Shown here: positions 8,278-31,832 of the stretch, one piece after another
How positions within the stretch are numbered: the stretch's first letter is position 1
Layout: each line of letters begins with the position of its first letter
Assembly: GCA_000166095.1 (NCBI GenBank)
Contig: CP002278.1
Span: forward strand, 1,050,001-1,082,000
Length of the DNA: 32,000 nucleotides
Reading direction: 5' to 3'
Source of the DNA: Methanothermus fervidus DSM 2088
Lineage (GTDB): Archaea; Methanobacteriota; Methanobacteria; DSM-2088; Methanothermaceae
Program-made: the position numbers and the translations under genes
The notes under the pieces: generated by a model
What the model was told of the DNA's origin: nothing
Databases searched by the model: none
What the model saw: only the letters and a program-made list of their open reading frames with translations

Positions 8278-8331
8278 AATTTGTTAACACATCCTAAATA
8301 AATTTAGCCATGTCTAACTCGGAAGTATCAA

Positions 8332-15724: not shown

Positions 15725-17893
15725 TTGCTGATAAATTTGCTAACAAATTCTGAATTAAAATACATAAAAAAAAGACTAGGACGAGATCCTAACCCACTGG
15801 AATATGGAATGCTAGATGTCATGTTTTCTGAACATTGTTCATACAAAAGTAGTAGGCCTGTTATCAAAATGTTTCCAACAGAAGGTGACAAAGTTATTGT
15901 TGGACCTGGAGATGATGCTGGTGTAATCGAAATTAATAAAAAATTTGCTTTGGCAGTAGGTATAGAAAGTCATAATCATCCTTCAGCAATCGAACCATAC
16001 AGTGGTGCAGGAACTGGTATTGGTGGAATATTGCGTGACATAATTTCTATGGGAGCATGGCCAATTGCACTTCTGGATTCATTACATTTTGGACATTTGG
16101 AGGATCAAAGATCATGTTATCTATTTGAAAACGTTGTTAAAGGAATATCTGATTATGGAAATAGAGTAGGGGTTCCAACCGTAGCAGGTGAAGTAGAATT
16201 TGATGAAAACTTCAAATTAAATCCTCTTGTAAATGTAATGTGTATAGGTATAGTTCCAAAAAAGAAAATAAAAAGAGGAATTGCACCCAATGTAGGTGAT
16301 GTATTCTTTTTAATGGGTGGACTAACAGGTAGGGATGGAATTCATGGAGTAACCTTTGCTTCTGAAGAATTAACCAGTGAATCAGAAATAGAAGATCGTC
16401 CAGCAGTTCAAATAGGTGATCCATTTACAAAAAAAATAGTCATGGAAGCTTCTTTTGAAATAATGGAAAAAATACCTGTTTCAGGTGTTAAAGATCTTGG
16501 CGGTGGCGGTCTAACATGTTGTATTTCAGAAATGGTTGCAAAATGTAACAATGGAGCAGAAGTATATGTTGATAAGGTTCCATTACGAGAAAAGAACATG
16601 ACTCCATATGAAATAATGCTCTCAGAATCTCAAGAAAGAATGATGTTTGTGATGCCACCAAAGTATGTAGAAAAAGCTTTAAAAATATGTAAGAAGCATG
16701 AAATACCTGCTGCAGCTGTAGTTGGTAAAGTAACTGATACAGGTAGGTTAGTTGTAAAGAAAAACAATAAAATTATAGCAGATATCCCTGCAGATTTATT
16801 GGCTAATCCTCCAGTTGTATACAGAGAATCCAAAAAACCAAAAAAGATTAAAACTAAAATACCTGATGTAGAGCATCCTCACCCAGAAGAAGCTTTAAAA
16901 AAGGTTCTATCATCCCAAAATATAGCAGATAAAAGTTGGGTATATTATCAATATGATTATGATGTACAGATAAGAACTATTGTTAAACCAGGAGATGATG
17001 CTGCAGTATTAAGGATTGATGATAAAACAGCTATAGCAGCCACTGTTGATAGTAATTGTGCCCATACAAAATTAAGTCCATATCATGGTGGTGCAGGATC
17101 AGTTGCAGAAGCTATAAGAAATGTTGTCTCCATGGGTGCATGGCCAATTTGTATTGTAGATTGTCTTAATTTTGGCAATCCTGAAAAACCTGAAATATTT
17201 TGGCAATTTAAAGAATGTGTCAAGGGGATGGCAAAGGTTGCAAAAGAATTCAAAGTACCTGTAATAAGTGGTAATGTTAGTTTTTATAATGAAACTGAAG
17301 GTATAGCTGTTAATCCTTCACCAGTGGTAGGCGTTGTAGGTAAAGTACCCATAAATAATATTCGAACCCTTGAATTTAAAAATAAAGGTGATAAAATTAT
17401 AATGGTTAGCAAAACATACAAAGAACTCGGTGGTTCAGAATATTATAAAGTTGTTCATGGTATTTCCAGCGGGATAGTCCCAAAGGTAAGGATCCAAGAT
17501 GAAATAGCAGCTGCTAAATCTATTTATAATCTTGTTTCTAAAGACAATGAAAATAAAATCACTGCAATCCATGACTGTTCTAAGGGAGGACTTGCTATTG
17601 CATTGAGTGAAATGGCAATAAGAAGCGGTATTGGCGCTAAAATAGATTTAGATTTAGTGCCTAAATCAGAAAATATTGATAAAATCGAAACTTTATTTTC
17701 AGAATCACATGGAAGATACATAATGACCGTAGATAAATCGGTTGCAAATGATTTTATAAAAGAAATAAATGTCCCAGCAAAAATAATAGGAAAAGTTACA
17801 TCTAAAAAACTTAAAATTAATGATATAATAAACATAAGTGTTAAGGAACTTCAGGAAAGTTATTATGGTGTCATAGAAAATTTTGTTGTATAA
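15725..17893 (+). CDS. purL: Phosphoribosylformylglycinamidine synthase subunit II
   Basis: 722-aa ORF with PurL motifs ([51 protein letters not shown], duplicated AIR-synthase-like halves). The TTG start lies 1 nt after the ileS stop; an alternative TTG is at 15737. Confidence 0.93.
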
Positions 17894-17903
17894 TCTCTTA
17901 AGA

Positions 17904-18460
17904 ATGATAAAAATGAATTTTAAGAGAGAAGTAATAAGGCAAACAATACATGCTTCGGGAGCATGGTTTATTTTACTTGAAAATTTTTTTCCAAATTATT
18001 TAATTGGATCAATAGCCTTACTTTTTAGCTTAATTGGGTATTTCATTTGGTATTTAGATAGAAGAGTATATTTAAGCTTTATATCTAAAATTTTGAGAAC
18101 ATGTAGAAGAAATAAAAAAGACAAGGGATTTATTTATTTTTTTATAGGGATTGGACTAACTTTCCTTTTATTTAATAATAAAGATATTATAAATGCTGCA
18201 ATTATAGTTCTATGTTTTGGAGATGCCCTATCTACAATAGTTGGTAGATTTTATGGAAAACATCCTTTTCTATTTGGGGAAAAAACATGGGAGGGATTCT
18301 TAACATTTTTATTCACATCTTTTTTTTGACAATGATAATACTTGACCCAATAAGAGCATTTATTGCAGCATTGGTGGGCGCATTGGCAGAAAATCTTCCA
18401 CTGGAAGATAATATAACGATACCTCTTTTTGTTGGCATTGCTTTGAGCTACTCCTCATAG
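17904..18460 (+). pseudogene. Polyprenol/dolichol kinase-like CTP-transferase-family membrane protein, split by a frameshift in a T8 run (18320-18327)
   Basis: The ORF to 18329 carries GDALSTIVGRFYGKH...KTWEGF. The frame starting at 18329 continues with a typical C-terminus (AFIAALVGALAENLPLEDNITIPLFVGIAL) and stops at 18458-18460. A 1-nt change in the T8 run joins the two parts. Confidence 0.7.
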
Positions 18461-18623
18461 AGTTTCCTACTTCATCAAGCTTCATCAAGAAAAAATATAG
18501 TCCTAAGTAGGGCATTCTCCCAAACAGACAATCAAAGCTACTCCACTCTTCAACAATACATGAATTTCATTTAGATTTATCATGAAAATTTAGGTTTTTT
18601 CTAGATATTATTGCATTTTGGAC
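18445..18623 (+). repeat. Intergenic repeat, copy 1: module E (GAGCTACTCCTCATAGAG...ATAGTCCTAAGTAGGG) plus a diverged module L1 (TTTTTTCTAGATATTATTGCATTTTGGAC, 18595-18623)
   Basis: It shares GAGCTACTCCTCATAG with 30201-30216 and 25061-25072. It shares ATAGTCCT[A/G]AGTAG with 25689-25701. Its L1 segment matches 25148-25176 and 30433-30461. Confidence 0.7.
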
Positions 18624-18649
18624 AAAAAAGAAATTAAAAAATAAGAAAA

Positions 18650-21600
18650 TCATTTCTCCGGCCTTCTCAATAGATATCCTGCTGCTATTAATGCAATCAA
18701 TATTATAACTCCGATTATTCCTGCAAATGGCACTGATGATGGACTTCCAATTCCTTTAGACACTGGTGTAATCTCATATGCTTTACCTGCTGCAGCACCT
18801 GTAATTCCTGCTTTACCTGTAGCACCTGATTCTGATGAGGATTTACTTGCAGCTCCAGAAGCTTGAGCTGCTCCTCTTGCACCAACTTCACCACCAACTC
18901 TACCTGAAGGACCTGAAATTCCTGGTGAAACTCCCCTTGTTGCTGCAGTTCCAATTCCTACTCTTCCTAATGCAGTTGGAGCTCCTAGTTGTGATGGTGC
19001 TCCTGGAATTGAAGGTTGTGGTGTAGTTGTTGGAATTCCAGGGACTGAAGGTTGTGGTGTTGTTGGAGCTCCTGGGATTGAAGGAGCAAATGCAGCATTT
19101 TTTGTTGCTATATATAGCTGAGATCTTACTGAATTTAATAGATTTGGATTTACATAGTTTAATGCCCATCTTATCATAGCTATATTTCCACAACTGCAAT
19201 CACAGCATGCTGGTCCATATCTGGCTATTAGAGCTGCCCATCTATTCATGAGGAATCTCATTGTATTCGCATCTAATTTTAATCGATTTTGATGTGCTAA
19301 GGTTAACAATGTGCCTATCCAATGAATCTGATCAAATGGATTGTTGTTAAGCCAGTTTGAAATGCCTAAATTATATTTATCTCTTAAATACACATCTATG
19401 AATTCCTTATACACGTCACTACTAATTTCTCCTGGAACTGTAGTCTGCCAAATTTTCAGAGATTCAATGAATGTTGAAATCCTATAAGCTCCTGCCTGGC
19501 CTTTACTCATCAATGCTTTAATAAATTCTGGATTGAAATATCTCGTTCTGAGATCTCTTGCAATATAATCACTTAAAGAAAGTATTTCTGGATTAAATTT
19601 ATTAGAAGTTATAGCAATCCTAATTTTTGGAGTTTCACCTGTTAATACTCTTATTGTCATTGCCAATCCACCTAAATAACTTGCCATAGCATCATTTTCT
19701 GCAACGCCAACTACATATGTACTTCTTCCTTGATATATACCTGAAACTCCGCTCAATAAATCTTTAAATAAGTCTGTATTCTTCTCACCCCAGGTAGTCT
19801 CTGAATAGAAATTACTCATCCTATTTATGAAGATATTTGATAAATCTGTCTCGTTTTTCCAGGTCCATGGTTGATCTATAGCTTCTTTTATGCCAGTTCC
19901 ATATCCTCCAGCAGGTGGGCCCACTATCCTTAATATTGCATAATTTCCTGCTTTTTCAGGTTCTACTCCTGATGCTATATATTTTTGAACAGATTCTAAC
20001 CAATGTTTAGCTACATAATTTTGATCTATTGGATCATCGCCTTTTACTAAAAGTTTTAGATCAACTAATGGTTTCACTGCCGCATCTAATGCCTTTACTA
20101 TTGTATCATTATATTGTCTTGCTATTGTATTATAAGATGCTGCAAGAGCTAATCTAAATGCACGATCAAGTAATACTGCAACCTGTCCATAAGCATCTCT
20201 GAATAAACCACTAATCATGACAATTGCATCGATTCTAGGCCTATTTAGAGTTGTTAGTGGTGTTAATTTAATACCAGAGACTCTTCCTCCTGCTGCCCAG
20301 GTTGGCTCCACACCTAACAATCTTAAAACAAATGAAACCATTGCTCCATCGTCTCTAGCTACATCAACTCCAAATATAACGACAGCCAGTTTTTCTGGCG
20401 GCTTTTCATATTCTTTTAATGCTAAATCAGCAATCTTTTTTCCTAATTCATATGCAGATTGTGTTGGTATCAATGTTGGATCTGTTGCATAGAAGTTCTT
20501 TCCAGTTGGTAAGACATTAGGATTAACAATAGGATCTCCACCAATCTGTGGAGCAACGTATCCACCATTTAAAACATTTAACAATGAATTTAATTCAGAA
20601 TTAAAACTTTGTTTCAATTTGTCGATGAGATCTTTTCCTAATTCTAATTTCTTTGTAATATTTTGTGAAACTGTGATATTTTTTCCTAACAATATGTCTT
20701 TTATCCATGCCTTCACTTGGTTATAAAGTTCATCAAACATCTCAGGTGTTATATTTTCATATGAAATTCCTTTTTCCTGTGCCAATAACCTTATAATAGA
20801 TGGATTGTCAACTCCACCATCTATACTTAACATTGAAGCTACAGTTTCAGCTATTTCGTCTGCAGTCCATTCTTTTCCAAATGTATGTAATCCATAGGGC
20901 ATCAATGTTGTTTCAATTTTAATTAAGTAATCTGAGCATGCTTTGATTAATTCTTCATCGCTTAAATTAGTATTTATTTCAATTTTAGATCTCTCTATTA
21001 ATTTCTTTATATCCTGTATATATGCCTTTTTGAGATTTTCATCTATAGCTTTTTTATAATTTTCTAATAATGTTTTAAGATTTAATAAGTCTCCGTATAA
21101 TCCTGACAACTTCATTGGAGGTGTTAAGTAATCTATTATTACCCCATAACCTCTTCTTTTTATTAATAATCCATCAGCCACGTTATCGACTCTGTATAGA
21201 TGAATGTTAGGTGTATCTCCAATAACTATATCTGGGAAATCAAAATCTAGTAATGCTGTTTGCTTTCTAGGAAGATGTTGATAAGTTGTGTCTACACCAA
21301 TGTGAATCATTGCATCTGCATTAAATTCTTTATTTATCCAAGCATAGAATGCGAGATATTGGTGATGTGGAGGAAGTATCAACGCATGTAACAAAGCATC
21401 TGGATTTCCTTCGTAACCTAATATTGGTTCTGGCCCAATGAATACATTTCCAATAATAATTCCAGGTATAACAATATATTTTGTTCCATTTTTAACTATA
21501 GTCATCAGATTGCCTGGAGGCTCTCCCCAACCTGCAAGTCCTGTAATATTTAACAGCATGAACTCTTTTTTCATCCTATAGAATTCTTCCCATGTGCTCG

Positions 21601-23461
21601 TGCCATTTATTATTGATCTCAATGTGCTTACAATTTTATCCAGTATTTCTAATCCTCTTTGTGATTTATTAGGACACATCTTTATACAATCTCTCATTTC
21701 TTTATACCATTTGTCAAGGACTTTTGTTGCAGTGCTGAGAATACCCGGATCCTTTTTACTATAATTCAGAGCAAATTTTATTATTTCTTCTATATATCCA
21801 AGAGGACCTTCCACAACATACTTTTGAGCTATTGGATTTAAACTGCTAAACCATCGTTTATATTTCTCTGCTTCCCACAATATCGAATTATTAGCAAGTT
21901 TTTCAAGTTCTCCTGGTGCCCATGGTGCCACATTTATGCCTTTAGTTCTTAAAATTTCAACAAATTCTTCAACATTTGGTATTTTGTCAATTGTATATCC
22001 TGCTTCCTTTAATTTGTTAAGTATGTTAATGATAGATTCTGGAAGATTTAAATAACTAGTTCCTATGTTCCATTTTCCTACACCATTCTCATATATAATT
22101 GCAATCTTTTTATCTTTATTTGGTTTAATTTTCAATTGTAACCATTTTTCAACTCTAGAAACAACTTTAGATACTCTTTCATCAATTACAGAATATGAAC
22201 TCAATTCACAACCAGTTAAAGGATCTACACGTTTATCTAGTGCTGCAATAGCAATAGGCTCTATCAGTCCCTGTGATTCTGGGAACACTAATTGCCCTGC
22301 TATATCGTCTCTACTCCATGGTGTTAAGCCATCATCAGAAATTAACCAATCTTTAACACTTCTACTTTCAATTTGAATTATTTTTATAACAGGAATATTT
22401 AGACGTTGTAATAATGCCACAACATTTTTTGAGGCTGGTCCTCCAAGTAAGTAAGTATGTGGTGCTAAAATTATATCTACAACTGGTTTTACAGAATCTG
22501 GATTTGATTCATACTCCTTTACAGACTTTGCGGTTGTGAAAAATTCAACAATGCCTGCATATGTTTCATAACCATATCTAGCAACAACAGGTATTACATT
22601 GTAACCTTTAGTTGTCAATTTCTCAATTAATGAATCAATTCCTGCTGTACCTCCTAGTGCCACATAACTATCTAATTCTATAATTCCAACAGTTGGTTTT
22701 TGAGGATTTAATGGATAATCTTTGAAATATTCTGTTAAATTATTATAAAATTTTCCATTTCTGTAAATTACATGCCGTGAAAACACTTTAACCTCGTCAT
22801 ATTTTACATACACAGGTTTTTTGTTGTATTTCGCCCACATATCTATTGCACAAAGTATTAAATTCTTATCATTCTCTGTACTTGGATAACAATAATATGA
22901 ATACAATTTTGCCCATTTTTGTATTTGTGGATATTTATTTACATATTGGCTTAACATCGTTAGAGGATTGTCAGAAATTTGAGTATAAGCACTGACATTG
23001 TATATATCCTGATCAGGAATTCCTTCAAATATTTTCTTACCATCAATCTGAGACAATTTTACAGAATCAACGCCTTCAGGACAACGTAAATGCACAAAAA
23101 GTTTGTCATTTGTTAAGACTCCTGGACTTTTCAATGTATTAACAAGTTTTGTATAGGTTTCCATAGTATGACCAATTGATTTTACAATGATAATATCTGA
23201 ACTTTTTATCATTGCTGTTAAGTCATCTGAAGACATTTTACTTATCTGTTCACCAGTCCTAACAGTGATATTGAATTTGTCTTTATATTGAGGATACTCT
23301 TCATAAATTTTGTATGTTGCTTCAACCGAATGTCTTGCATAGTGAGGTGGATTTAAAATTAATATGTTTATTTTTTCATGATCTGTAGTATTCTCTGCGG
23401 CTGCAGTCCCTAATAAGGAGAAAATCAGTAGAAATGCTATTAGAATAATTGTTCTTCTCAT
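18650..23461 (-). CDS. CobN / Mg-chelatase H family protein (1603 aa) with an N-terminal signal peptide and a C-terminal Pro/Thr-rich linker, Gly/Ala/Ser-rich tract and transmembrane anchor
   Basis: CobN-family similarity runs along most of the length (e.g. HALILPPHHQYLAFYAWI, IHIGVDTTYQHLPRK, NGGYVAPQIGGDPIVNPNVLPTGKNFYATDP, ISGLFRD, EWLPG-like regions). The start is set at the ATG at 23461, which follows GGAGGG at 6 nt and gives MRRTIILIAFLLIFSLLGTAAAENTT. The C-terminus is ...VPFAGIIGVIILIALIAAGYLLRRPEK. Confidence 0.85.
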   Translation of the reverse strand: MRRTIILIAFLLIFSLLGTAAAENTTDHEKINILILNPPHYARHSVEATYKIYEEYPQYKDKFNITVRTGEQISKMSSDDLTAMIKSSDIIIVKSIGHTMETYTKLVNTLKSPGVLTNDKLFVHLRCPEGVDSVKLSQIDGKKIFEGIPDQDIYNVSAYTQISDNPLTMLSQYVNKYPQIQKWAKLYSYYCYPSTENDKNLILCAIDMWAKYNKKPVYVKYDEVKVFSRHVIYRNGKFYNNLTEYFKDYPLNPQKPTVGIIELDSYVALGGTAGIDSLIEKLTTKGYNVIPVVARYGYETYAGIVEFFTTAKSVKEYESNPDSVKPVVDIILAPHTYLLGGPASKNVVALLQRLNIPVIKIIQIESRSVKDWLISDDGLTPWSRDDIAGQLVFPESQGLIEPIAIAALDKRVDPLTGCELSSYSVIDERVSKVVSRVEKWLQLKIKPNKDKKIAIIYENGVGKWNIGTSYLNLPESIINILNKLKEAGYTIDKIPNVEEFVEILRTKGINVAPWAPGELEKLANNSILWEAEKYKRWFSSLNPIAQKYVVEGPLGYIEEIIKFALNYSKKDPGILSTATKVLDKWYKEMRDCIKMCPNKSQRGLEILDKIVSTLRSIINGTSTWEEFYRMKKEFMLLNITGLAGWGEPPGNLMTIVKNGTKYIVIPGIIIGNVFIGPEPILGYEGNPDALLHALILPPHHQYLAFYAWINKEFNADAMIHIGVDTTYQHLPRKQTALLDFDFPDIVIGDTPNIHLYRVDNVADGLLIKRRGYGVIIDYLTPPMKLSGLYGDLLNLKTLLENYKKAIDENLKKAYIQDIKKLIERSKIEINTNLSDEELIKACSDYLIKIETTLMPYGLHTFGKEWTADEIAETVASMLSIDGGVDNPSIIRLLAQEKGISYENITPEMFDELYNQVKAWIKDILLGKNITVSQNITKKLELGKDLIDKLKQSFNSELNSLLNVLNGGYVAPQIGGDPIVNPNVLPTGKNFYATDPTLIPTQSAYELGKKIADLALKEYEKPPEKLAVVIFGVDVARDDGAMVSFVLRLLGVEPTWAAGGRVSGIKLTPLTTLNRPRIDAIVMISGLFRDAYGQVAVLLDRAFRLALAASYNTIARQYNDTIVKALDAAVKPLVDLKLLVKGDDPIDQNYVAKHWLESVQKYIASGVEPEKAGNYAILRIVGPPAGGYGTGIKEAIDQPWTWKNETDLSNIFINRMSNFYSETTWGEKNTDLFKDLLSGVSGIYQGRSTYVVGVAENDAMASYLGGLAMTIRVLTGETPKIRIAITSNKFNPEILSLSDYIARDLRTRYFNPEFIKALMSKGQAGAYRISTFIESLKIWQTTVPGEISSDVYKEFIDVYLRDKYNLGISNWLNNNPFDQIHWIGTLLTLAHQNRLKLDANTMRFLMNRWAALIARYGPACCDCSCGNIAMIRWALNYVNPNLLNSVRSQLYIATKNAAFAPSIPGAPTTPQPSVPGIPTTTPQPSIPGAPSQLGAPTALGRVGIGTAATRGVSPGISGPSGRVGGEVGARGAAQASGAASKSSSESGATGKAGITGAAAGKAYEITPVSKGIGSPSSVPFAGIIGVIILIALIAAGYLLRRPEK
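18996..19087 (-). repeat. About 33-36-nt tandem repeat (about 2.5 units) inside the CobN-like gene, encoding PQPS[IV]PG[AI]PTT
   Basis: On the plus strand, GGTGCTCCTGGAATTGAAGGTTGTGGTGT, TGGAATTCCAGGGACTGAAGGTTGTGGTGT and TGGAGCTCCTGGGATTGAAGG follow one another. The protein reads PSIPGAPTTPQPSVPGIPTTTPQPSIPGAP. Confidence 0.6.
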
Positions 23462-23543
23462 AGATTTCCCTCCATCAATAAAATGTTTAACATTAGTAAT
23501 AATATTAAAATTTTTTTTCATTAACAATTAAAATAAATTAAAA

Positions 23544-23639
23544 TTAACTTCAATAACGAAGAGAGAGGTAAATTTCAAGTGTAATAGCTAGAGAGAATTA
23601 AGGAGAGGTAGTTATAAGTTATAACTTATAAGTTATAAG
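23544..23639 (+). repeat. Intergenic repeat, copy A of the core module L2 (…TTCAATAA.GAAGAGAGAGGTAAATTTCAAGTGTAATAGCTAGAGAGAATTAAGGAGAGGTAGTTATAAGTTATAACTTATAAGTTATAAG)
   Basis: It is nearly identical to 25179-25279 and 30582-30681, with only a few substitutions. It contains the perfect 20-bp palindrome TTATAAGTTATAACTTATAA (23612-23631), which is also four [G/C]TTATAA heptads. It sits between the cbiB stop and the CobN-like gene start. Confidence 0.85.
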
Positions 23640-24515
23640 CGAGGAAAATAATGCTGAAACTATAGCCAAATACAAAATTATGGAAACTACAGCCAGCCTG
23701 ACAGCCTTATCTATCGAATTTTCATTTAACTTCCCGTCGTCTCCTAAAACATAATGGTCTGGCTTTTCTAATTTTGCTTGTAATGCACCAGCAGTGGCCG
23801 CCATTGGATAACCTGCATTTGGACTGTCAGGGACCTTAGAATCTCTTAACATTATTTTAAAGCTATTTCTCCAATCCATATTTAAAAGTAGTGAAGCAAA
23901 GACTATTAACATTCCAGTGATCCGTGCAGGTATAAAATTAAGTATATCATCTAATTTCGCTGGGAACCATCCAATTTCTCTATACTCTTTATTCTTATAT
24001 CCAATCATTGCATCAAGTGTATTCACAACCCTATAAAATACTGCACCATATATCCCAAAAAACAATGCATAAAAAATCGGAGACACTACAGAATCCACAA
24101 TATTTTCACTTAAACTCTCTATGGCCGCTGAAATAATCTGTGTCCTTGATAATTCACTTGTATCTCTACTTACAATTTCAGATACTTTTTTGCGTGCAGA
24201 TTCTATATCATCCAACCTCTTTTTCACTTCTAATGGATATTTAATAAGTAATTTTATTGAAAACGTAGAAGATAAAATTATTGAATAAAGAATTATTTGT
24301 AAAAACATTGGAAGAAAAGCTATGAAATAAAGTGGAATTATATAAAGTATAGAAGTGAGGAAAGTGATTATAACACCTGAAATTTTCTTATTTGGTAATC
24401 TTACATATAAGAAATCTATAGTTTTACCAATCCAAACAACAGGATGAATTCTAGTTGGAAGTTCTCCAATTAAATCCAATATTATCGCAAAAAATAAAAT
24501 AATTAAAAAATTCAT
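23619..24515 (-). CDS. cbiB: Adenosylcobinamide-phosphate synthase (CbiB/CobD)
   Basis: 298-aa membrane ORF with CbiB signatures (HPVVWIGK, DTSELSRTQIISAAIESLSENIVDSVVSPIFY, NTLDAMIGYKN, PNAGYPMAATAGAL). Its start overlaps the upstream CYTH gene stop (ATGA, 24512-24515). Confidence 0.9.
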   Translation of the reverse strand: MNFLIILFFAIILDLIGELPTRIHPVVWIGKTIDFLYVRLPNKKISGVIITFLTSILYIIPLYFIAFLPMFLQIILYSIILSSTFSIKLLIKYPLEVKKRLDDIESARKKVSEIVSRDTSELSRTQIISAAIESLSENIVDSVVSPIFYALFFGIYGAVFYRVVNTLDAMIGYKNKEYREIGWFPAKLDDILNFIPARITGMLIVFASLLLNMDWRNSFKIMLRDSKVPDSPNAGYPMAATAGALQAKLEKPDHYVLGDDGKLNENSIDKAVRLAVVSIILYLAIVSALFSSLITYKL

Positions 24516-25060
24516 TGTTGGTGCCTTTTCTTTTCTAAATAAAGCTCAAGGTATGATCTTCTCTCAAAATTATTCTTTATATTTAATTTTTTACAAATTT
24601 TAAAGGCATGGTCCACATATTCTTTAATTTTATTTTTATTTTTTACATTCTTCTCAACTTCAATAAATTTACCAACTTTATATACATCATCAAGACAAAT
24701 CTCAAAATCTTTAAACTTGTAAACTTTTCTTTTTTTCTTTATTGTTGCTACTGCTTTGTAACCAAGGAATTTAAGTATTTCAACCATATTTTTTAAATTT
24801 TCTATACCAACTTCAACCTCTTCTCTAGTTTTACTAATTTTATCTATTTTTGGACCTTTATATGTTAAAATTATTTTAGTTTTTTCATTTTCGATCTTTC
24901 TAATTCTCAATGCTTCATCAGTCTTTGAAAAGTCTCTGTCTGGAGCATTGAAATAAATATCTTCTTGATATATTTCCTCAATTTTTTCTGCTCCTAATTT
25001 TTTTAACCTGTCTTCAATTTCTTTTAAATTATTAACATGGGCTTTCACTTCGACTTCCAT
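24512..25060 (-). CDS. CYTH-domain protein (CyaB-type class IV adenylyl cyclase / triphosphatase family)
   Basis: 182-aa ORF starting MEVEVKAHV (the ExExK motif of CYTH), with ALRIR, LTYKG, REEVEV and FIEVE strand motifs. A GAGGAG ribosome-binding site lies 6 nt upstream. Confidence 0.8.
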   Translation of the reverse strand: MEVEVKAHVNNLKEIEDRLKKLGAEKIEEIYQEDIYFNAPDRDFSKTDEALRIRKIENEKTKIILTYKGPKIDKISKTREEVEVGIENLKNMVEILKFLGYKAVATIKKKRKVYKFKDFEICLDDVYKVGKFIEVEKNVKNKNKIKEYVDHAFKICKKLNIKNNFERRSYLELYLEKKRHQQ

Positions 25061-25073
25061 GAGCTACTCCTCA

Positions 25074-25102
25074 ATTTCCATACTATTTAGTCTATTTAAA
25101 AC
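25074..25102 (-). repeat. Solitary CRISPR-repeat-like unit (SR) on the minus strand: GTTTTAAATAGACTAAATAGTATGGAAAT
   Basis: This is the reverse complement of 25074-25102. It matches the units at 30765-30794, 30829-30858 and 25311-25340. It lies in the predicted 5' UTR of the CYTH-cbiB operon and ends 13 nt before the ATG. Confidence 0.75.
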
Positions 25103-25139
25103 ATGCATGAGACGAATAATTTTCATTTTTTATTTTAAT

Positions 25140-25303
25140 ATATATAGTTTTTTCTAAGTATTATTGCGTTGGAGAGAGAAAATCAATTTCAATAAGAAGA
25201 GAGGGAGGTAAATTTCAAGTGTAATAGCTAGAGAGAATTAGGGAGAGATAGTTATAAGTTATAACTTATAAGTTATAAGTGAAATAGAGATAGACTTATC
25301 AAG
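25140..25303 (+). repeat. Leader-like repeat, copy B (module L1 at 25140-25178 plus core module L2 at 25179-25303)
   Basis: It is collinear with 30425-30463 plus 30582-30705 and partly with 23544-23639 and 18595-18623. It starts with a TATATATA box (25140-25147) readable on both strands. It contains the 20-bp palindrome at 25252-25271. Confidence 0.85.
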
Positions 25304-25310
25304 CAAGATA

Positions 25311-25340
25311 TTCTAAGAATAGACTAAATAGTATGGAAAT
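25311..25340 (+). repeat. Solitary CRISPR-repeat-like unit (SR), 5' third diverged: TTCTAAGAATAGACTAAATAGTATGGAAAT
   Basis: The 3' 21 nt are identical to the unit at 30774-30794. The unit is followed by AGAAAAAAGGTGA (a ribosome-binding site) and the ATG at 25360. Confidence 0.7.
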
Positions 25341-25359
25341 AGAAAAAAGGTGATAGTTT

Positions 25360-25605
25360 ATGCCTAAAGCAACGTTAGCTACAGGAATTATAGCAATAGG
25401 TGCTGGTCTAGCAATAGGTTTTGCAGGTTTAGGAGCTGGAGTAGGACAGGGAGTAGTTGGATCATCCTCAGTTGGAGCAATAGTTGAAGATCCTGGATCA
25501 TTTGGTAAAAGCCTCCTATTTACAGCTCTACCAGAAACTCACACAATCTTTGGATTCATTATTGCTATAATGTTGATAATGTTTTCAGGAATGATGGGCG
25601 GATAA
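25360..25605 (+). CDS. A/V-type ATPase proteolipid (subunit K/c)-like protein with a single two-helix hairpin, located outside any ATPase operon
   Basis: 81-aa ORF with a Gly/Ala-rich first helix (GAGLAIGFAGLGAGVGQGVVG) and a second helix carrying a conserved acidic residue (ALPETHTIFGFIIAIML). An AGGTGA ribosome-binding site lies 7 nt upstream. Confidence 0.7.
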   Translation: MPKATLATGIIAIGAGLAIGFAGLGAGVGQGVVGSSSVGAIVEDPGSFGKSLLFTALPETHTIFGFIIAIMLIMFSGMMGG

Positions 25606-25750
25606 GCTACTCCTATTTTGAGCCACTCCCTACGGAGCTTCCTGATTCATAGAGAAAACTTGCCCAAAGACTATATCCCTATAGGAGATAGTCCTGAGTA
25701 GAGGTTTTCTCTCAGGTAGGCTATCTAGGGCTATCTTTTCCCTGACATCC
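25605..25750 (+). repeat. Intergenic repeat, module E copy 2 (AGCTACTCCT...CATAGAGAAAACTTGCCCAAAGACTAT...ATAGTCCTGAGTAGAGGTTTTCTCTCAGG)
   Basis: It shares CATAGA[G/A]AAAACTTGCCCAAA[G/A]ACTAT and TTTTCTCTCAG with 30213-30251. It shares ATAGTCCT.AGTAG with 18497-18510. It begins at the last base of the proteolipid gene stop codon. Confidence 0.7.
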
Positions 25751-25802
25751 AAACTTTTTGGGCTAAATTATTATATAAACAAAAATAAAAGCGGTGAGAA
25801 CT

Positions 25803-26582
25803 ATGATCTATTATATTATCTATTTTATTACCGGTCTTCTAGCAGGAGTTGTAGGTGGACTTTTGGGCACAGGTGGTTGTGTCATAATGATGCCAGTAAT
25901 TCGTTTTGGTTTCCATTTTGATCCGGCTATTGCGGTAGGAACAACTTTAACTGCTGTGGTTTTTACTGCCGGTTTCGGTGCCTTTCAACATATCAAAATG
26001 AAAAATGTTGATAAAGAAACTGCGCTTTTAACCGGTTATTCAGGAATTTTAGGAGTAATTATCGGCTCAATTATTTTTGGCTACATCAAAAATCATGGTA
26101 ACCTGATTGATTTGATTGTTGGTATCGCTTTCATTGTTGTTTCTTTACGAATGCTTTATGAGGGATTATTCGCCAAAATTAAGCAAGTTGAACAAGTGCA
26201 AAAAATTCCAGGGACGCCTCTCTCTAAAACGATTATAGGTTCAGTTATTGGCACTTTAACTGGTATTATTGGTTTAGGAGGAGGCTATGCTCTTGTCCCA
26301 TCGTATACTTTATTCTTGAGATCTCCGATAAAGTTGGCTATCGGTACTTCTATGGCTGCTTTTGTCTGGATAGCTTTGGTTGGTGCCATCTACAAAATAT
26401 TCCAGGGAGTTGTCAATATTCCAGCAGCGATTGCTTTGGGCATTGGTGCAGCGATTGGGGCGATTTATGGAGCAAAATTAGTAGCGAAATTTAAATCCAA
26501 TGTCTTAAAAATCTTGTTTGGTCTTTTATTTACCTATGTCTCTTTGAAATATATATTAATTTACTTTGGCATCGTTATTTAA
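25803..26582 (+). CDS. TauE/SafE family sulfite-exporter-like permease
   Basis: Polytopic membrane ORF with the internally duplicated TauE pattern (GLLAGVVGGLLGTGGCVIMMP and GTLTGIIGLGGGYALVP). The ATG at 25803, with GGTGA 5 nt upstream, is preferred over the GTG at 25794. Confidence 0.85.
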   Translation: MIYYIIYFITGLLAGVVGGLLGTGGCVIMMPVIRFGFHFDPAIAVGTTLTAVVFTAGFGAFQHIKMKNVDKETALLTGYSGILGVIIGSIIFGYIKNHGNLIDLIVGIAFIVVSLRMLYEGLFAKIKQVEQVQKIPGTPLSKTIIGSVIGTLTGIIGLGGGYALVPSYTLFLRSPIKLAIGTSMAAFVWIALVGAIYKIFQGVVNIPAAIALGIGAAIGAIYGAKLVAKFKSNVLKILFGLLFTYVSLKYILIYFGIVI

Positions 26583-26872
26583 CCACTACAGAGATAAATA
26601 AAGTGAATAGGATGCGACTCTAGGAATAAAACTTTGTAGGAACCGAGATGTTAAGAGGTAACTAATCCACAAATGAGTAAAAAATTGAAAGTGAGGGCAT
26701 GATGGTGAAATCAGATTCAAAGACCTCTTCTGTCCTTCATTTATTTTTACCATTATTCAAGCCGGACTTACAACCTCTAGCGGTCCTGCAATGGTTTCAT
26801 ATATTAAAGATCTGTGTGTAAAACAGAACAAATGGCTTGATAAAAAACATTAAAGAGGATTAAAATTGAACA

Positions 26873-26978
26873 AGAGTAAAAGAAGAGTTGTGTATATTTT
26901 TAAAACAAATGCTAGTTTTGTTCATCTATATAAATACTTTTCTTATTTCTTAATCCCCGATAGAGTGGAAATCTGTTT
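26873..26978 (+). repeat. Promoter-like repeat module P, copy 1 (…CATCTATATAAATACTTTTCTTATTTCTTAATCCCCGATAGAGTGGAAATCTGTTT), upstream of the KaiC-like gene
   Basis: It is collinear with 30466-30576, differing by a few substitutions and one short indel. It contains the strong TATA box TATATAAATA (26927-36; second copy at 30525-34). Confidence 0.8.
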
Positions 26979-27016
26979 AATTCTGAAAAAATATTAAAAT
27001 AAAAAAATTTATTAGT

Positions 27017-27772
27017 ATGGGTAGACAAAACATGAAAAACATGAAAAAAGTAAAAACCGGAATTCCTGGAATGGATGATATATTACATGGAGGAATACCT
27101 GAAAGAAATATAGTTTTGTTGTCTGGTGGTCCAGGCACTGGAAAAACAATATTTTGTCAGCAATTTCTATATAAAGGTGTTAAAGAGTATAATGAGCCAG
27201 GAATTTTAGTAGCATTAGAAGAGCATCCTGTACAAATCAGGGAAAATATGAAACAATTTGGGTGGGATGTTAGAGAACTTGAAGAAGAAGAAGAAAAATT
27301 TGTCATAGTTGATGCATTTACATCTGGAATAGGACGTGCTGCAAAAAGAGAAAAATATATAGTAAAGGATCCAAACGATGAAAGAGAATTAATCGATGTT
27401 TTAAGAACTGCTATAAATGATATTGGAGCTAAAAGAGTAGGAATTGATTCCGTAACTACCCTCTACATAAATAAACCAATGATGGCCAGAAAAACAGTGT
27501 TTCTATTAAAGAGAGTCATTTCCGGTTTAGGATGCACTGCTATTTTTACATCTCAAATTTCTGTTGGAGAGAGAGGATTTGGAGGCCCTGGAGTTGAGCA
27601 TGCTGTTGATGGAATTATAAGGTTAGATTTAGATGAAATAAAAGGAGAATTAAAAAGAAGTTTGATCGTTTGGAAAATGAGAGGAACCAATCATTCTTTA
27701 AAAAGACGTCCATTTGATATAACTGATAAAGGAATTTATGTACACTCAGATAAAGTATTAAAAATTAGATGA
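27017..27772 (+). CDS. KaiC-like / RecA-superfamily ATPase (single KaiC domain)
   Basis: The N-terminus is typical of KaiC/RadA-like proteins ([41 protein letters not shown], Walker A). A Walker B-like RVGIDSV and [12 protein letters not shown] are also present. Alternative starts are at 27032 and 27041. Confidence 0.85.
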
Positions 27773-27784
27773 AAGGTGTTAGTT

Positions 27785-28276
27785 ATGATTCCATTAGTGC
27801 CTACATCAAAAACTGAAATAAATAAGTTAGAACATGTTTTAGTGTTAGGAACATTGTTTAGACCCGAAATTTTGAAATTAATAAAGGATCCTAGAGAAAG
27901 AATTACCTGGGTTGAATCTTTAGCTGTTGCTTCAGGGAGCATAGCAAGAGAAAAAGCAGGGTACACTGTAAGGGAAATAGCGGAAGAATTAGGAAGAACA
28001 GAACAAACAATTAGAAAACATGTGAAGGGTGAAACAAAGGCTGGAAAATTAGTCAGAGAAACCTATAATATGATAAAAGAAGGAAAACTAGACATGTCAG
28101 AGTTGGAAGATTTTTTAGAAACTACTGTTAGAAAAGAAGAATTAGAATCAAAATTATCAAAAGTTAAAGAATTAGATAAAAAATTAGAGAAACTTAAAAA
28201 AGAAAATGAAAAACTCAACACAAAACTAGAAAAAGTCAGGGAAAAATTGGAAGAAATATTAGAGGACATAAAATAA
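27785..28276 (+). CDS. Helix-turn-helix protein with a C-terminal coiled coil
   Basis: The HTH-like segment is YTVREIAEELGRTEQTIRKHVKG. The C-terminal 60 aa are a K/E/L heptad-rich coiled coil (ELESKLSKVKELDKKLEKLKKENEKLNTKLEKVREKLEEILEDIK). The ATG at 27785 lies 6 nt after AAGGTG and 12 nt after the KaiC-like gene stop. Confidence 0.65.
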   Translation: MIPLVPTSKTEINKLEHVLVLGTLFRPEILKLIKDPRERITWVESLAVASGSIAREKAGYTVREIAEELGRTEQTIRKHVKGETKAGKLVRETYNMIKEGKLDMSELEDFLETTVRKEELESKLSKVKELDKKLEKLKKENEKLNTKLEKVREKLEEILEDIK

Positions 28277-28278
28277 TA

Positions 28279-28758
28279 TTATACGTACATTCTGTCACTT
28301 TCTTTACCTTTTTCAATATCTTCACCACATTCTTTATGTATTTTCCACAAAACATGGAGTTTTGCCTTAAACACCCTCTTTATGGTGGACATCAATTTGT
28401 CTTTACTTAAACCATCTTTATATATTACGTCTCTAACAACATAACCCTGCAATACATCGTCATTTTCCTGAATTTCAAAATCAACAAGAAATTTATTCAA
28501 TGAAAATTTTATATCCCACATAAATTCCCTACGTTCTTTCCTGTTTAAATCTCTAAGTTTTTGCACATGTTCTGGACTAACTTTCGTAGCACATCCAACA
28601 ATAATCACATCTGATTTTCCAAGAGGTTGTATGACATCCATGTAATGTCCTGGGGGACATTCAATTAAAAAATGAAAATTTGCCGATTTATCACTCATTT
28701 CTTCCTTATACATATCTTCCTCTAATAACCATTCTCTAATTTTTTCCTTGATTTCCAT
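28279..28758 (-). CDS. Conserved hypothetical cytoplasmic protein of unknown function
   Basis: 159-aa ORF with non-repetitive composition and coding-like periodicity. It is tightly packed after the 267-aa gene with a 14-nt gap. I recognise no motif with certainty. Confidence 0.55.
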   Translation of the reverse strand: MEIKEKIREWLLEEDMYKEEMSDKSANFHFLIECPPGHYMDVIQPLGKSDVIIVGCATKVSPEHVQKLRDLNRKERREFMWDIKFSLNKFLVDFEIQENDDVLQGYVVRDVIYKDGLSKDKLMSTIKRVFKAKLHVLWKIHKECGEDIEKGKESDRMYV

Positions 28759-28772
28759 ATTTTTTACACACC

Positions 28773-29576
28773 CTATGTTTTATATACTTTCAAAACAAAA
28801 TCACATACCTGATTTTCAAAATATGGTGGATCTAGTAGAATTGATTTTTTTATTTTCACAATATAAACATTGTCATCTGGTATTGAATTTAAATTTAACC
28901 AGATTACTTGCTTTTCACTTTTTACCATTGATTTTATTCTATCGTTTAAATTATAAAATTTTTCTGAATTGAAATCATTATTAGGATTTTCCACAGTATT
29001 TAAATTCCACAAAATATTACTTGCATTTGATATTAAAAAATAATTGTATTGATTAAGTTCAGAAGTAGTGACAGAAAAATGTTTTGAAATTTTTGATGGA
29101 ATAGGGCCTACTTCAGAATCTGTTTTGTTTGCATCAATCTTTATCACAACACAATCTGCAAAAAAATCACACACTACGGTTCTATTTACAACCACAACTT
29201 CTTGAGAAGAAATAGGTGGATCCTCCTTAATTACAATTTTTCCTCCATTTTTTGGATAAAGTATTAAGCTTGTGGTCGTATTTGGCAATATTTTTCCAAT
29301 TAATTCATCATAATTTTCTTTTAATTTTAAAATTTTCTTAAAAGATAAGACATTCCCACTATTTTCTTTTTTTAATCCAAGTATTACATCGCTTGAATTC
29401 CAAGTCCCATAGGTATTTACGAGAATGTCTACTGCTCCTCTTACTTGTCTCTCTAAATTAAATCTATAATATTGATCACTTGTGTTTTTTATTAAATTAT
29501 CAACTGTATTTACAGAAATTCCAAAAATAATTACGATAACTATAAGAGAAAGAAGTAAATCTGTGGATAATATCAT
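28773..29576 (-). CDS. Hypothetical protein with an N-terminal hydrophobic anchor (pilin-like / class III signal-like), Asn/Ser-rich
   Basis: 267-aa ORF with an N-terminal MILSTDLLLSLIVIVIIFGI segment and no other transmembrane helix. Its start lies 2 nt after the dedA stop, which implies an operon. Confidence 0.55.
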   Translation of the reverse strand: MILSTDLLLSLIVIVIIFGISVNTVDNLIKNTSDQYYRFNLERQVRGAVDILVNTYGTWNSSDVILGLKKENSGNVLSFKKILKLKENYDELIGKILPNTTTSLILYPKNGGKIVIKEDPPISSQEVVVVNRTVVCDFFADCVVIKIDANKTDSEVGPIPSKISKHFSVTTSELNQYNYFLISNASNILWNLNTVENPNNDFNSEKFYNLNDRIKSMVKSEKQVIWLNLNSIPDDNVYIVKIKKSILLDPPYFENQVCDFVLKVYKT

Positions 29577-29578
29577 TT

Positions 29579-30181
29579 TTAACCCCTATTTTTAGCTATA
29601 ATATAAATTATAACTATTACGATACCTATTGCAACAATATAATCAAGTTTATGAAATATTTCAACCACCGATTTCCAATGTGGACCTAATGAATAACCTA
29701 CATATGCTAACATATAACACCATGGTATAGAACCTATGAAAGTATAAATACTAAATTTTTTTAGATCCATTTTGGCTGTACCTGCAGGTAATGAAATAAA
29801 TGTTCTTACAATTGGCATTACTCTACTTATAAATACAGCCTCATGTCCATATCTTTTAAACCATTTATCAGCCATTTCAAGTTTTTTCTTTGTAATAAAA
29901 ATATATTTACCATATTTTTCCAAAAATGGTCTTCCACCTTTTATCCCAACAAAATATGCAATCCACGACCCAACTAAATTTCCTAAAGCTCCAGCCATAA
30001 CTACAAGATATAAATTCAAATTTCCTTTCCAGGCAACATAACCGCTAAAAGGCATTATAATTTCACTAGGTAGGGGAATACATGCGCTTTCAAGTACCAT
30101 AGTGAAAAAAATGCCAATATATCCTGTTGATTCTATCAGCGAGATTATAAAGTTAGCGATTGTTTCAACAATGCCTGCCAT
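29579..30181 (-). CDS. DedA / SNARE-associated family membrane protein
   Basis: DedA motifs are present (ESACIPLPSEIIMPFSGY, GALGNLVGSWIAYFVGIKGGRPFLEKYG, RVMPIVRTFISLPAG). The start is set at the ATG at 30181, preceded by GGGGTGAAGAA. The 38 codons upstream in the track ORF run through repeat module E. Confidence 0.85.
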   Translation of the reverse strand: MAGIVETIANFIISLIESTGYIGIFFTMVLESACIPLPSEIIMPFSGYVAWKGNLNLYLVVMAGALGNLVGSWIAYFVGIKGGRPFLEKYGKYIFITKKKLEMADKWFKRYGHEAVFISRVMPIVRTFISLPAGTAKMDLKKFSIYTFIGSIPWCYMLAYVGYSLGPHWKSVVEIFHKLDYIVAIGIVIVIIYIIAKNRG

Positions 30182-30200
30182 TTCTTCACCCCAATTTTTT

Positions 30201-30300
30201 GAGCTACTCCTCATAGAAAAAACTTGCCCAAAAACTATCAGTTTTCTCTCAGACATGCGATGGGGATTGTCTCGTCCCCTTTTTAGGATCTGCATGCCGA
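30201..30300 (+). repeat. Intergenic repeat, module E copy 3 (GAGCTACTCCTCATAGAAAAAACTTGCCCAAAAACTAT...TTTTCTCTCAG...)
   Basis: See the module E copies at 18445 and 25605. It contains the hairpin GGGGA-ttgtctcg-TCCCC followed by TTTTT (30262-30284). Confidence 0.7.
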
Positions 30301-30424
30301 TATATAATCTCTTAACTTATTTTTTAATCCTTTTAATGCTCCCAGGTTTAACCTTCTCAACTACCTATCAGTTTTTTTCAGCTTGTAGAAGTCATCTTGT
30401 ATGAAAAAAGTAGCATAAGGAAGT

Positions 30425-30764
30425 ATATATAGTTTTTTCTAAGTGTTATTGCGTTGGAGAAAGAAAGAGTAAAGAAGAATTTGTGTATATTTTTTTAGAA
30501 CAAGTTCTATTTTTGTACTTCATCTATATAAATACTTTTCTTATTTCTTAATCCCCGATAGAGTGGAAATCTGTTTTTTACAAAATCAATTTCAATAAGA
30601 AGAGAGAGAGGTAAATTTCAAGTGTAATAGCTAGAGAGAATTGAGAGAGGTAGTTATAAGTTATAACTTATAAGTTATAAGTGAAATAGAGATAGACTTA
30701 TTAAGTATGTTAAGACAAAACATTTTTATACTGTATCCTGCCTAAAAACAAAATAATCAGTTCG
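30425..30764 (+). repeat. Leader-like repeat, copy C: L1 (30425-30463), inserted promoter module P (30466-30576), core L2 (30582-30705), then about 59 nt of unique AT-rich sequence up to the first CRISPR-like repeat
   Basis: It is collinear with copy B apart from the insertion of module P, which is homologous to 26873-26978. The 20-bp palindrome is at 30654-30673. Confidence 0.85.
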
Positions 30765-30858
30765 GTTTTAAAATAGACTAAATAGTATGGAAATACGAAA
30801 TATTTACAACCATGTGCAAATGAAGCTGGTTTTAAGATAGACTAAATGGTATGGAAAT
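30765..30858 (+). CRISPR. Mini CRISPR-like array of two 30-nt repeats (GTTTTAAAATAGACTAAATAGTATGGAAAT and GTTTTAAGATAGACTAAATGGTATGGAAAT) and one 34-nt spacer (ACGAAATATTTACAACCATGTGCAAATGAAGCTG)
   Basis: The repeats lie at 30765-30794 and 30829-30858 with 2 mismatches and a 64-nt period. A conserved leader-like sequence precedes them. Repeat length, the GTTTTAAAA...AGAC start and the ATGGAAAT end resemble archaeal methanogen CRISPR repeats as I recall them. No cas genes are in the window. Confidence 0.5.
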
Positions 30859-31153
30859 CGAAAAGAGGCTCAAGCAATAGAAATAGAAGTATACCATATT
30901 TTTTCCTGTGTCCATTGTCTAAAAAAAGTCCTGAAAAGGAGCTTGTTGAATTAAAACAGAACGAAAATCCATAATATGTATTTGTATCAGAAAATAATAC
31001 ATGATCTACTGATACTGGTGCACTAACATTTTCTATTATAATAGAAGGTACAATAAAAGTTTCAATTCCAAATTCACGTCCATCAGAAACTCCTTTTCCA
31101 TTTAATCTAATAAAAATAACATGCTCCATCATGGCTTTCATGGTAATAACCAT
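30842..31153 (-). CDS. Hypothetical ORF, probably the frameshifted C-terminal continuation of the 31107..31832 gene
   Basis: It overlaps the upstream ORF by 47 nt in another frame. A 1-nt change in the A6 run (plus-strand T6 at 31153-31158) fuses the two. Its last six codons and stop lie inside CRISPR-like repeat 2. Confidence 0.4.
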   Translation of the reverse strand: MVITMKAMMEHVIFIRLNGKGVSDGREFGIETFIVPSIIIENVSAPVSVDHVLFSDTNTYYGFSFCFNSTSSFSGLFLDNGHRKKYGILLFLLLEPLFDFHTI

Positions 31154-31832
31154 TTTTTAGGCAATTTAACAAAATATTTGTGTTGTTATGTGTTGTATAT
31201 TCCTCATAAGGACATTTTTTGATTAAAAATGGAGAAATTGCATTTTTATAATAAGAAACATTTTTTAATCCTTTTTCAGATAAATATGCTGCCAAAGAAT
31301 CTCCATAATATATTTTAGATTTATCATGATGCAGATTTCCATATTTTCTTAGTTTTATAAAAGGTAACGGGTCTGGTAAACCTTCAATTGAAAATTCTTT
31401 TGTAATGGTCTCTTGATGTTTCACGTTTCCCTCTTCAACATCTAATGAAAAGTTTATATCAATTAAAAAAGGATCATTACTATTTGTTTTCAAATAATTT
31501 ATAATACAATTTGATTTAATACCTTTATTTTCATATTTTTTAGATATTTCGTTTATTTTTGATTCTATTATTTTTTTTGCGCTATCTGAACTATTTGTAT
31601 AGCTGACATTGTTATCAATGACATTATATGCCATATCTTCAATAACTTTCCTTGCAATTATTGGTACATTGTTTTTAATATCATCCACCGTATAAATAAC
31701 ATTTTTAGAGGATTTTTTGTTGAGAATTATTGAATTCTCCATATTTATAAACGAAAAAACAGCTGAAAGTAATAAAATTAAAGGTATTATTAGTAGAAAA
31801 GTCATATTACTTATTATATAACCTCTTTCCAA
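31107..31832 (-). CDS. Hypothetical protein with a class III (prepilin-like) signal sequence
   Basis: The N-terminus MERGYIISNMTFLLIIPLILLLSAVF has a short charged leader, then RG[Y], then a hydrophobic helix, as in archaeal type IV pilin-like proteins. The remainder is Asn/Lys-rich. Confidence 0.55.
   Translation of the reverse strand: MERGYIISNMTFLLIIPLILLLSAVFSFINMENSIILNKKSSKNVIYTVDDIKNNVPIIARKVIEDMAYNVIDNNVSYTNSSDSAKKIIESKINEISKKYENKGIKSNCIINYLKTNSNDPFLIDINFSLDVEEGNVKHQETITKEFSIEGLPDPLPFIKLRKYGNLHHDKSKIYYGDSLAAYLSEKGLKNVSYYKNAISPFLIKKCPYEEYTTHNNTNILLNCLKNGYYHESHDGACYFY

Follow-up and report, generated by a model that had tools for sequence, protein, structure and literature searches.

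Probable remnants of decayed CRISPR leader-array units between genes of Methanothermus fervidus

What are the short repeated modules that recur between unrelated genes in one part of the chromosome of the hyperthermophile Methanothermus fervidus DSM 2088? The window studied here, a stretch of 32,000 nucleotides (contig CP002278.1, positions 1,050,001 to 1,082,000; coordinates below are counted from its first nucleotide), contains five of them, which a preliminary description had named E, L1, P, L2 and SR, and for which it had proposed two origins: a recombination-driven cassette array, or a former CRISPR leader region colonised by genes. The genome (1,243,342 bp, 31.6% G+C, 93.6% coding) has been published with the entry 'CRISPR repeats 0' (PMC3035299). 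Our answer is that SR is a CRISPR repeat by descent, and that the modules are, with a probability that we put at about 0.6, the eroded remains of several (at least five) CRISPR leader-array units, collapsed and trimmed by deletion and ectopic recombination. They are an example of CRISPR decay, and not a new kind of system.

SR is present in the window in exactly four significant copies, with alignment scores of 49-60, the best score in shuffled sequence being 30 or less. The repeats of 23 loci elsewhere differ from it by 1-4 mismatches. A scan of metagenomes for SR yielded 22 loci with up to 113 repeats, among them Methanothermobacter-like contigs, and another scan, of species-representative genomes, detected a tandem SR array, with degenerating terminal units, in a Methanobrevibacter metagenome-assembled genome; it should be noted that the latter scan is no measure of the remaining M. 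fervidus genome, because it left unreported an exact SR copy 500 nt past the end of the window. In one of the matching loci (L035), the array stands after cas7-cas5-cas3-cas4-cas1-cas2 and is separated from cas2 by a leader of about 170 nt, while in another (L033) a small array precedes cas6, whose product is 86-88% identical to Methanothermobacter Cas6. SR is therefore homologous to repeats of arrays that are physically linked to cas1/cas2 and to cas6, and since such cas-linked arrays, one with a Cas6 close to that of Methanothermobacter, are among its matches, it is a repeat of a type I-B-like system of Methanobacteriales. The same loci fix the transcribed orientation of the repeat as GTTT(T/A)AAAATAGACTAAATAGTATGGAAAT. 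Two of the long SR-type arrays (L026 and L031) terminate in a single copy of a different, classical Methanothermobacter repeat, GTTAAAATCAGACCAAAATGGGATTGAAAT, after a 35-nt spacer; these trailer ends suggest the replacement of one repeat type by another inside one array.

The M. fervidus copies are also spaced and oriented like those of an array, reduced to its minimum. Direct repeats enclose one spacer each, of 34 nt in the group of modules here called unit C and of 36 nt in unit D, and the interval of 64 nt from the first to the second repeat of unit C (C1 to C2) is the spacing of real arrays. The layout is that of two single-spacer mini-arrays plus two solitary repeats, which flank L1-L2 at 25.1-25.3 kb. 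Two is the largest number of adjacent repeats, short of the three or more used for detection, and this maximum is consistent with the zero in the genome paper. Gapped alignment in the window revealed no extra degenerate repeat above shuffled background; SR-like ends of P and of the reverse complement of E were considered as candidates and rejected, as they were not significant against that background.

Unit D lies beyond the window, and the family does not end at 30.9 kb as first described. A Logan contig (L045, reaching 32,607) carries two further SR copies and leader-proximal sequence, inverted, at about 32.50-32.61 kb. These minus-strand repeats are located at the 3' end of the Sua5/YrdC gene, and are followed by AAATAATCAGTTCG in reverse complement, the 14-mer that immediately precedes repeat C1. 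As to the window itself, Logan contigs of run SRR072735 match it with 100% identity. The features in it are the following, in order of position:

18442-18560, plus strand: E1, a GC-rich (39%) repeat unit, in which a second AGCTACTCC motif at 18535 opens a truncated tandem unit.
18594-18635, plus strand: L1', a diverged L1 together with the beginning of L2, truncated where the CobN-like gene has its 3' end; 76% identical over 42 nt to 25147-25188.
23540-23642, plus strand: L2-A (unit A), L2 alone, without L1, P or SR.
25060-25073, plus strand: the E-start 14-mer TGAGCTACTCCTCA, between the start codon of the CYTH gene (minus strand) and the minus-strand SR.
25074-25102, minus strand: SR-B1, a solitary CRISPR repeat with one mismatch to the reference repeat, ending 13 nt before the CYTH ATG in sense orientation.
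25139-25181, plus strand: L1-B, beginning with TATATATAG.
25179-25310, plus strand: L2-B, abutting L1 (no P) and SR-B2; the leader-proximal 52 nt are absent.
25311-25340, plus strand: SR-B2, a solitary CRISPR repeat with a degenerate 5' end, ending 19 nt before the proteolipid ATG.
25605-25750, plus strand: E3, the longest E copy (45% GC), starting where the homology of the paralogous ATPase K-subunit genes ends (25604).
26872-26997, plus strand: P-P, the P copy upstream of the KaiC-like gene, with the TATA-like CTATATAAATA.
30198-30300, plus strand: E4, an E copy with two internal deletions, upstream of the opposite-strand dedA.
30362-30392, plus strand: E5', apparently a heavily deleted second E unit, judged from alignment by eye; a fuller E start stands there in the contigs L004 and L006.
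30424-30466, plus strand: L1-C, 95% identical to L1-B.
30465-30595, plus strand: P-C, the P copy between L1 and L2.
30582-30712, plus strand: L2-C, delimited by self-BLAST.
30713-30764, plus strand: leader-proximal segment, in which TTTTTATA precedes the first repeat by about 32 nt; the final 14 nt are found again, inverted, next to the mini-array outside the window.
30765-30794, plus strand: CRISPR repeat C1, GTTTTAAAATAGACTAAATAGTATGGAAAT.
30795-30828, plus strand: spacer of 34 nt, to which no match turned up.
30829-30858, plus strand: CRISPR repeat C2, with 2 substitutions.
30859-30877, plus strand: trailer, similar to the E start in reverse complement, with 13/20 matches to the junction at 25055-25073.

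Self-BLAST of the window returned all five modules at or very near the positions originally given for them, and none in 1-18.4 kb; the first half of the window has six gaps that measure 84-178 nt and are free of modules. From 18.3 to 31.1 kb, at least one module is present in every gap of more than 20 nt, in agreement with the claim made for 18.4-30.9 kb. Unit C (30198-30858) reads E4, the deleted E5', L1, P, L2, the 52-nt leader-proximal segment, repeat, 34-nt spacer, repeat. Unit B (25060-25340) consists of the 14-nt E start, SR on the minus strand, 36 nt, L1, L2 and SR on the plus strand, and joins L1 straight to L2, so that within the window P stands between the two in copy C only, as first described. 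The first gap holds E1, L1' and the initial bases of L2, while single modules stand before the KaiC-like gene (P) and after the proteolipid gene (E3).

Conservation differs from module to module. The three L2 copies are 91-94% identical in pairs (E-values 1e-34 to 2e-48), and each of them (3/3) contains the perfect 20-bp palindrome TTATAAGTTATAACTTATAA. Similarity to L1-B and L1-C is weak in the third L1 copy, at 18594-18635 (74-76%, E-value 5e-6 in a 2-kb search space). The two P copies are 82-89% identical and have in common an exact 58-nt core (26921-26978 and 30519-30576). The E copies at 18442-18560, 25605-25750 and 30198-30300 are akin via short blocks only (20/20, 26/34 and 26/28 matches), with large indels between them. 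The copies of E initially listed all stand, and what appears to be one deleted copy, at about 30362-30392, had been missed; the E start given as 12 nt at 25061 is present, but is really an identity of 14 nt, marginal by itself (E-value 0.03-0.045), and the junction of SR with the E start is seen again, diverged, at 30859-30877. In G+C content, E (39-45%) stands above ordinary gaps (12-25%), L1, P and L2 being at 24-28%.

From the breakpoints of k=31 assemblies, the presence of one or more additional P-like copies beyond the window can be deduced: their analysis explains all contig ends, and needs an outside copy identical to P-C from 30508 onward. This copy is probably located in unit D, in which case a 1.8-kb segment would be enclosed by units C and D as an inverted repeat at least about 270 nt long. 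Between tauE and P-P lies a unique stretch of 289 nt (26583-26871), whose 35% G+C is above that of ordinary gaps; it includes a 40-codon open reading frame (ORF; MMVKSDSKTSS...) after GTGAGGG, which could represent either a small gene or part of a pseudogene.

What recurs upstream of the repeats is a composite unit. L1, P and L2 are AT-rich, multi-copy sequences that precede SR in units B and C, a picture that leaders of several arrays would give, and TATA-like boxes can be seen; L2 is directly upstream of SR in both units, and probably also in the inverted unit D. L1-P-L2 occupies the position of a leader, and it is from this position that we infer its leader status, because no homology to the leaders of cas-linked arrays was detected. 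Several observations weigh against regarding the modules as leader remains. When L1, P, L2 and E were compared by BLAST with leaders and flanks of the 23 SR-type arrays, no similarity was detected beyond AT-rich chance matches. In addition, E is GC-rich, often tandem and occurs without SR, so that a leader or trailer origin is not evident, and E falls outside the decayed-CRISPR account, which leaves it unexplained. Finally, copies that are 91-96% identical in a streamlined genome need recent duplication, gene conversion or selection. A BLAST comparison of the same four modules with a cas contig described below (L048) gave AT-rich chance matches only.

Nor was another identity found for E. No module has a match in Rfam, the lone window match at an E-value of 1 or less being a chance mir-221 (1088-1171), and the window contains no tRNA. 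When folded on both strands, E gave z-scores of +0.45 to -2.5, with no stable or convincing shared structure; its copies are too indel-divergent for covariation analysis.

A history that would account for these observations can be proposed. An ancestor of M. fervidus would have had a CRISPR system like those of type I-B in Methanobacteriales, with several arrays that had one long leader in common, as in the long-repeat/short-repeat (LR-SR) elements of Methanocaldococcus jannaschii; L1, P and L2 would formerly have been parts of this leader. Once interference and adaptation had stopped, the arrays would have shrunk to two, one or zero repeats through recombination between repeats, and the near-identical leader copies would have undergone ectopic recombination and deletions, leaving the present mosaic of L1-L2-SR, L1-P-L2-SR-spacer-SR, isolated L2, isolated P and E-L1'. 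Within a genome that is 93.6% coding, deletions would have reached the neighbouring genes, which would explain why several of them (cbiB, Sua5 and a frameshifted membrane-protein gene) end in modules. The genome would by now be without cas genes, and neighbouring genes may now use P, L2 and the TATA-like boxes of the leader-proximal segment as promoters. The phrase 'former CRISPR leader region colonised by genes' comes close to the evidence as regards the descent of SR and the place of L2 upstream of it, its leader part being positional; the mosaic of insertions and deletions between copies, also pointed out in the preliminary description, is as expected from recombination and decay.

Comparison between strains was made with L004, from sample DRR667206, which represents a 98.6%-identical strain, and with L006. 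Coding regions differ by 0.4-1.5%, the flanks of P by 0.4-2%, and P by 16% including indels, the TATA-like element of P being retained in the 98.6%-identical strain despite this divergence. The sequence past E4 differs between strains by deletions of the second E unit. Because of the 16% divergence of P against its flanks and of the E deletions, the modules evolve fast and by indels, as relics or substrates of gene conversion would. The stretch from E4 to L1-C (30301-30423) is the most variable between strains in the region, and Logan contigs of three other samples end or diverge there, at 30313, 30328 and 30349.

Each of the rival explanations has some support, and each fails at least one direct test. 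The modules might be mobile or dispersed non-coding elements resembling miniature inverted-repeat transposable elements (MITEs), L1-L2 with its inverted SR copies being a 270-nt element with 26-nt terminal inverted repeats, and E a second small element, both of which would have spread into intergenic sites. The arms at 25071-25096 and 25318-25343 are indeed 96% complementary, with 221 nt between them, direct AGCTACTCC motifs bracket E1, E copies start exactly at gene ends, and the E region varies between strains. However, unit B is not flanked by a target-site duplication (its flanks are CTCCTCA and AGAAAAA), no other copy has the same two ends, and inverted SR arms exist in unit B only, the SR pairs of units C and D being direct repeats at array spacing. 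Moreover, the strain differences in E resemble deletions of a common tandem copy rather than new insertions, and the window has no transposase. We consider a MITE-like origin unlikely.

A second alternative is that the mini-arrays are functional, i.e. that they are transcribed, that Cas proteins whose genes lie elsewhere in the genome or exist only in some strains process them, and that they are used for defence, for exclusion of cas genes or for gene regulation. The repeats are nearly undecayed (0-4 changes), and a TATA-like box precedes repeat C1 by about 32 nt; in E. coli, orphan arrays with anti-cas spacers are known (PMC8616872). A complete I-B operon, cas6-cas8-(104 aa)-cas7-cas5-cas3-cas4-cas1-cas2, of similar G+C content (27-31%), was found on contig L048 (Logan DRR667206_4, 1-9670), from the very sample of the 98.6%-identical strain, so that a close relative of M. 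fervidus may still have CRISPR-Cas; the host of L048 is unproven. Yet this operon is preceded by a different repeat, ...TCAAATCAGACTATTTTAAGGGTTTGAAAC, of which there is no trace in the window. There is no cas gene among the ORFs of the window, nor did a tblastn search with 16 Cas proteins find cas pseudogenes in it; no Methanothermus protein is among the best 120 of 725 Cas6 homologues (all with at least 49% identity), no report of cas genes in Methanothermus was found in the literature, and the genome paper records no CRISPR. Neither viral contigs nor cas loci nor the window itself gave a match to the spacers, and scans of the viral contigs for SR and for the L2 core were likewise negative. 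Functional mini-arrays are, in our opinion, quite improbable.

The genes between the modules belong to ordinary operons, and domain annotation bears out that they are functionally unrelated: they encode a CobN-like protein, CbiB, a CYTH protein, an ATP-synthase c subunit, TauE, a KaiC-like ATPase and its helix-turn-helix (HTH) partner, a DUF2299 protein and a DedA/VTT protein. Some genes run into the modules. The last seven codons and the stop codon of cbiB (minus strand) are encoded within the palindrome of L2-A, and a 1-nt indel near L2-A in another contig (L001) accompanies a CbiB of 300 instead of 298 aa; the Sua5 stop codon falls inside an SR; and the frameshifted membrane-protein gene at 17883-18460 takes its final codons and stop from the first bases of E1. 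The frame of this last gene is broken at a run of eight T (18321-18328), its downstream part (MIILDPIRAF...FVGIALSYSS*) stopping inside E1, and gene callers on Logan contigs likewise stop at 18329; it may be a pseudogene, the product of a homopolymer sequencing error, or a case of programmed slippage.

Other genes begin just past a module: CYTH 13 nt past the minus-strand SR, the proteolipid gene 19 nt past the plus-strand SR, and the KaiC-like gene about 40 nt past P. This arrangement could mean that the modules are duplicated regulatory regions under selection, i.e. common promoters or 5' untranslated regions (UTRs) that co-regulate the flanking genes, an idea to which the upstream position of P (with its TATA element kept in the diverged strain), of L2-SR and SR before the proteolipid and CYTH genes and of E before dedA lends support, together with the 91-96% identity between copies. 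The orientation of the modules is, however, inconsistent, E being sense to tauE and antisense to dedA, and L2-A and unit C facing gene 3' ends; the divergence of P is about 10 times that of its flanks; and the genes have unrelated functions. Selection for co-regulation has little likelihood as an explanation. An integron-like platform, with the modules as sites for a gene-capturing site-specific recombinase, is very improbable, as is the cassette array of the preliminary description in this sense, since, even if the modules bound unrelated units, among which the KaiC-HTH pair looks horizontally acquired, no window ORF encodes an integrase, recombinase or transposase and no integrase or recombinase occurs in the 600 nt beyond, the modules are non-uniform as sites and differ at each boundary, with orientations and ends inconsistent relative to the genes, the cassettes would have mixed orientation and include essential genes (Sua5/TsaC, cbiB), and what lies between the modules is ordinary operons.

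Two of the interposed loci have a history of their own. The orphan proteolipid gene (ATP-synthase c/K-subunit, 25360-25605) encodes an 81-aa protein, 100% identical to ADP77915, and is a paralogue of the ATPase-operon copy ADP78032 (P0320), 117 genes away, with 91% aa identity. At the DNA level, the paralogues differ by two single-nucleotide polymorphisms across 25397-25603 (about 207 nt), and identity drops to about 65% in the 5' 40 nt. This pattern indicates gene conversion in the M. fervidus genome, with a tract ending at the stop codon, and the homology stops at 25604, at the very point where E3 starts. In Logan assemblies, breaks or chimeras arise at this locus (L041, L049); a second proteolipid-E3-tauE locus suggested by L049 was discarded, as L049 is better explained as an assembly chimera via a 115-nt identical stretch. 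The KaiC-like protein (27017-27772), which is 100% identical to the one recorded for M. fervidus DSM 2088, shares 88% identity with its counterpart from Methanocaldococcus, a value far above the expectation for two orders. Its gene adjoins that of a 163-aa HTH partner both in M. fervidus (pair 27017-28276) and in Methanocaldococcus (L040, 8285-10029), with no other neighbour in common, and on these grounds the pair was probably transferred horizontally.

These loci invite the speculation that, after the loss of immunity, leader and repeat modules were co-opted as portable promoters and patches of homology, by which duplicated or foreign genes (the ATPase K-subunit paralogue and the Methanocaldococcus-like KaiC-HTH pair) would have been captured and expressed; CRISPR repeats would then be part of the 5' UTRs in the transcripts of CYTH-cbiB and of the proteolipid gene, and a dead locus would have become a platform for gene capture and expression. 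We regard such co-option as rather unlikely.

Some further genes of the region deserve mention. The CobN-like gene (18650-23527, minus strand) encodes a 1625-aa CobN/Mg-chelatase-like protein with an N-terminal signal-like segment; three tandem repeats of 33-36 nt (18992-19096) encode a Pro/Gly/Thr-rich linker, and the hydrophobic C-terminal tail ends in RRPEK like a surface anchor, which is unusual for a cobaltochelatase subunit. Unit C is flanked by two proteins without Pfam family (28773-29576 and 31107-31832, minus strand), whose N-terminal hydrophobic segments are of the archaeal class III (pilin-like) signal type.

A hyperthermophile recorded as CRISPR-free carries at least six CRISPR repeat copies and several leader-like units, all of them under the detection limit of array finders. 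If the modules are decayed CRISPR units, as we favour, the region offers a concrete, datable picture of CRISPR decay, in which arrays collapse to one or two repeats, leaders outlast arrays, and deletions fuse the relics to gene ends. Recombination between the relic repeats seems to shape gene order in this region of a very compact genome, and genomes scored as CRISPR-free can hold informative ghost loci.

In comparison with known systems, the modules are like MITEs in being short intergenic non-coding repeats, one copy of which has 26-nt inverted ends, and unlike them in that no target-site duplication, consistent ends or cognate transposase were seen. Isolated (orphan) arrays, mini-arrays and solitary repeat units (SRUs) have been described by Faure (2019), Medvedeva (2019) and Almendros (2016), and reviewed in PMC8616872. 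Like these, M. fervidus has single-spacer, two-repeat arrays and lone repeats that are near-identical to the repeats of complete systems, with no adjoining cas genes. Unlike M. fervidus, SRUs and mini-arrays are mostly viral or proviral and occur in hosts with a cognate system, their spacers usually having targets (PMC8616872), whereas here the repeats lie among housekeeping genes of the chromosome, the search for targets was negative, and it was only in other genera that a cognate system was seen. The closest relatives of the repeat are the type I-B loci of Methanothermobacter and Methanobrevibacter (L035, L033, L011, etc.), where the repeat is within 1-4 bases of SR, and repeat length, spacer length and orientation to an AT-rich upstream region are the same; those loci differ in having cas genes, tens to more than 100 repeats per array instead of two, and an upstream region unrelated in sequence.

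The most instructive parallel concerns the LR-SR elements that Bult and co-workers reportedly described in M. jannaschii in 1996, and that are said to be read now as CRISPR leaders with their repeats. The M. fervidus arrays differ from them in having 0-2 repeats, in that the long unit is itself a mosaic of L1, P and L2, in that no cas genes are known in the genome, and in the crowding of at least five units into 14 kb between ordinary genes. Their plan is nonetheless the same: each genome has several copies of a long, AT-rich and conserved unit, followed by repeats of 27-30 nt with unique spacers of about 35 nt, and in M. jannaschii, too, some copies have very few repeats.

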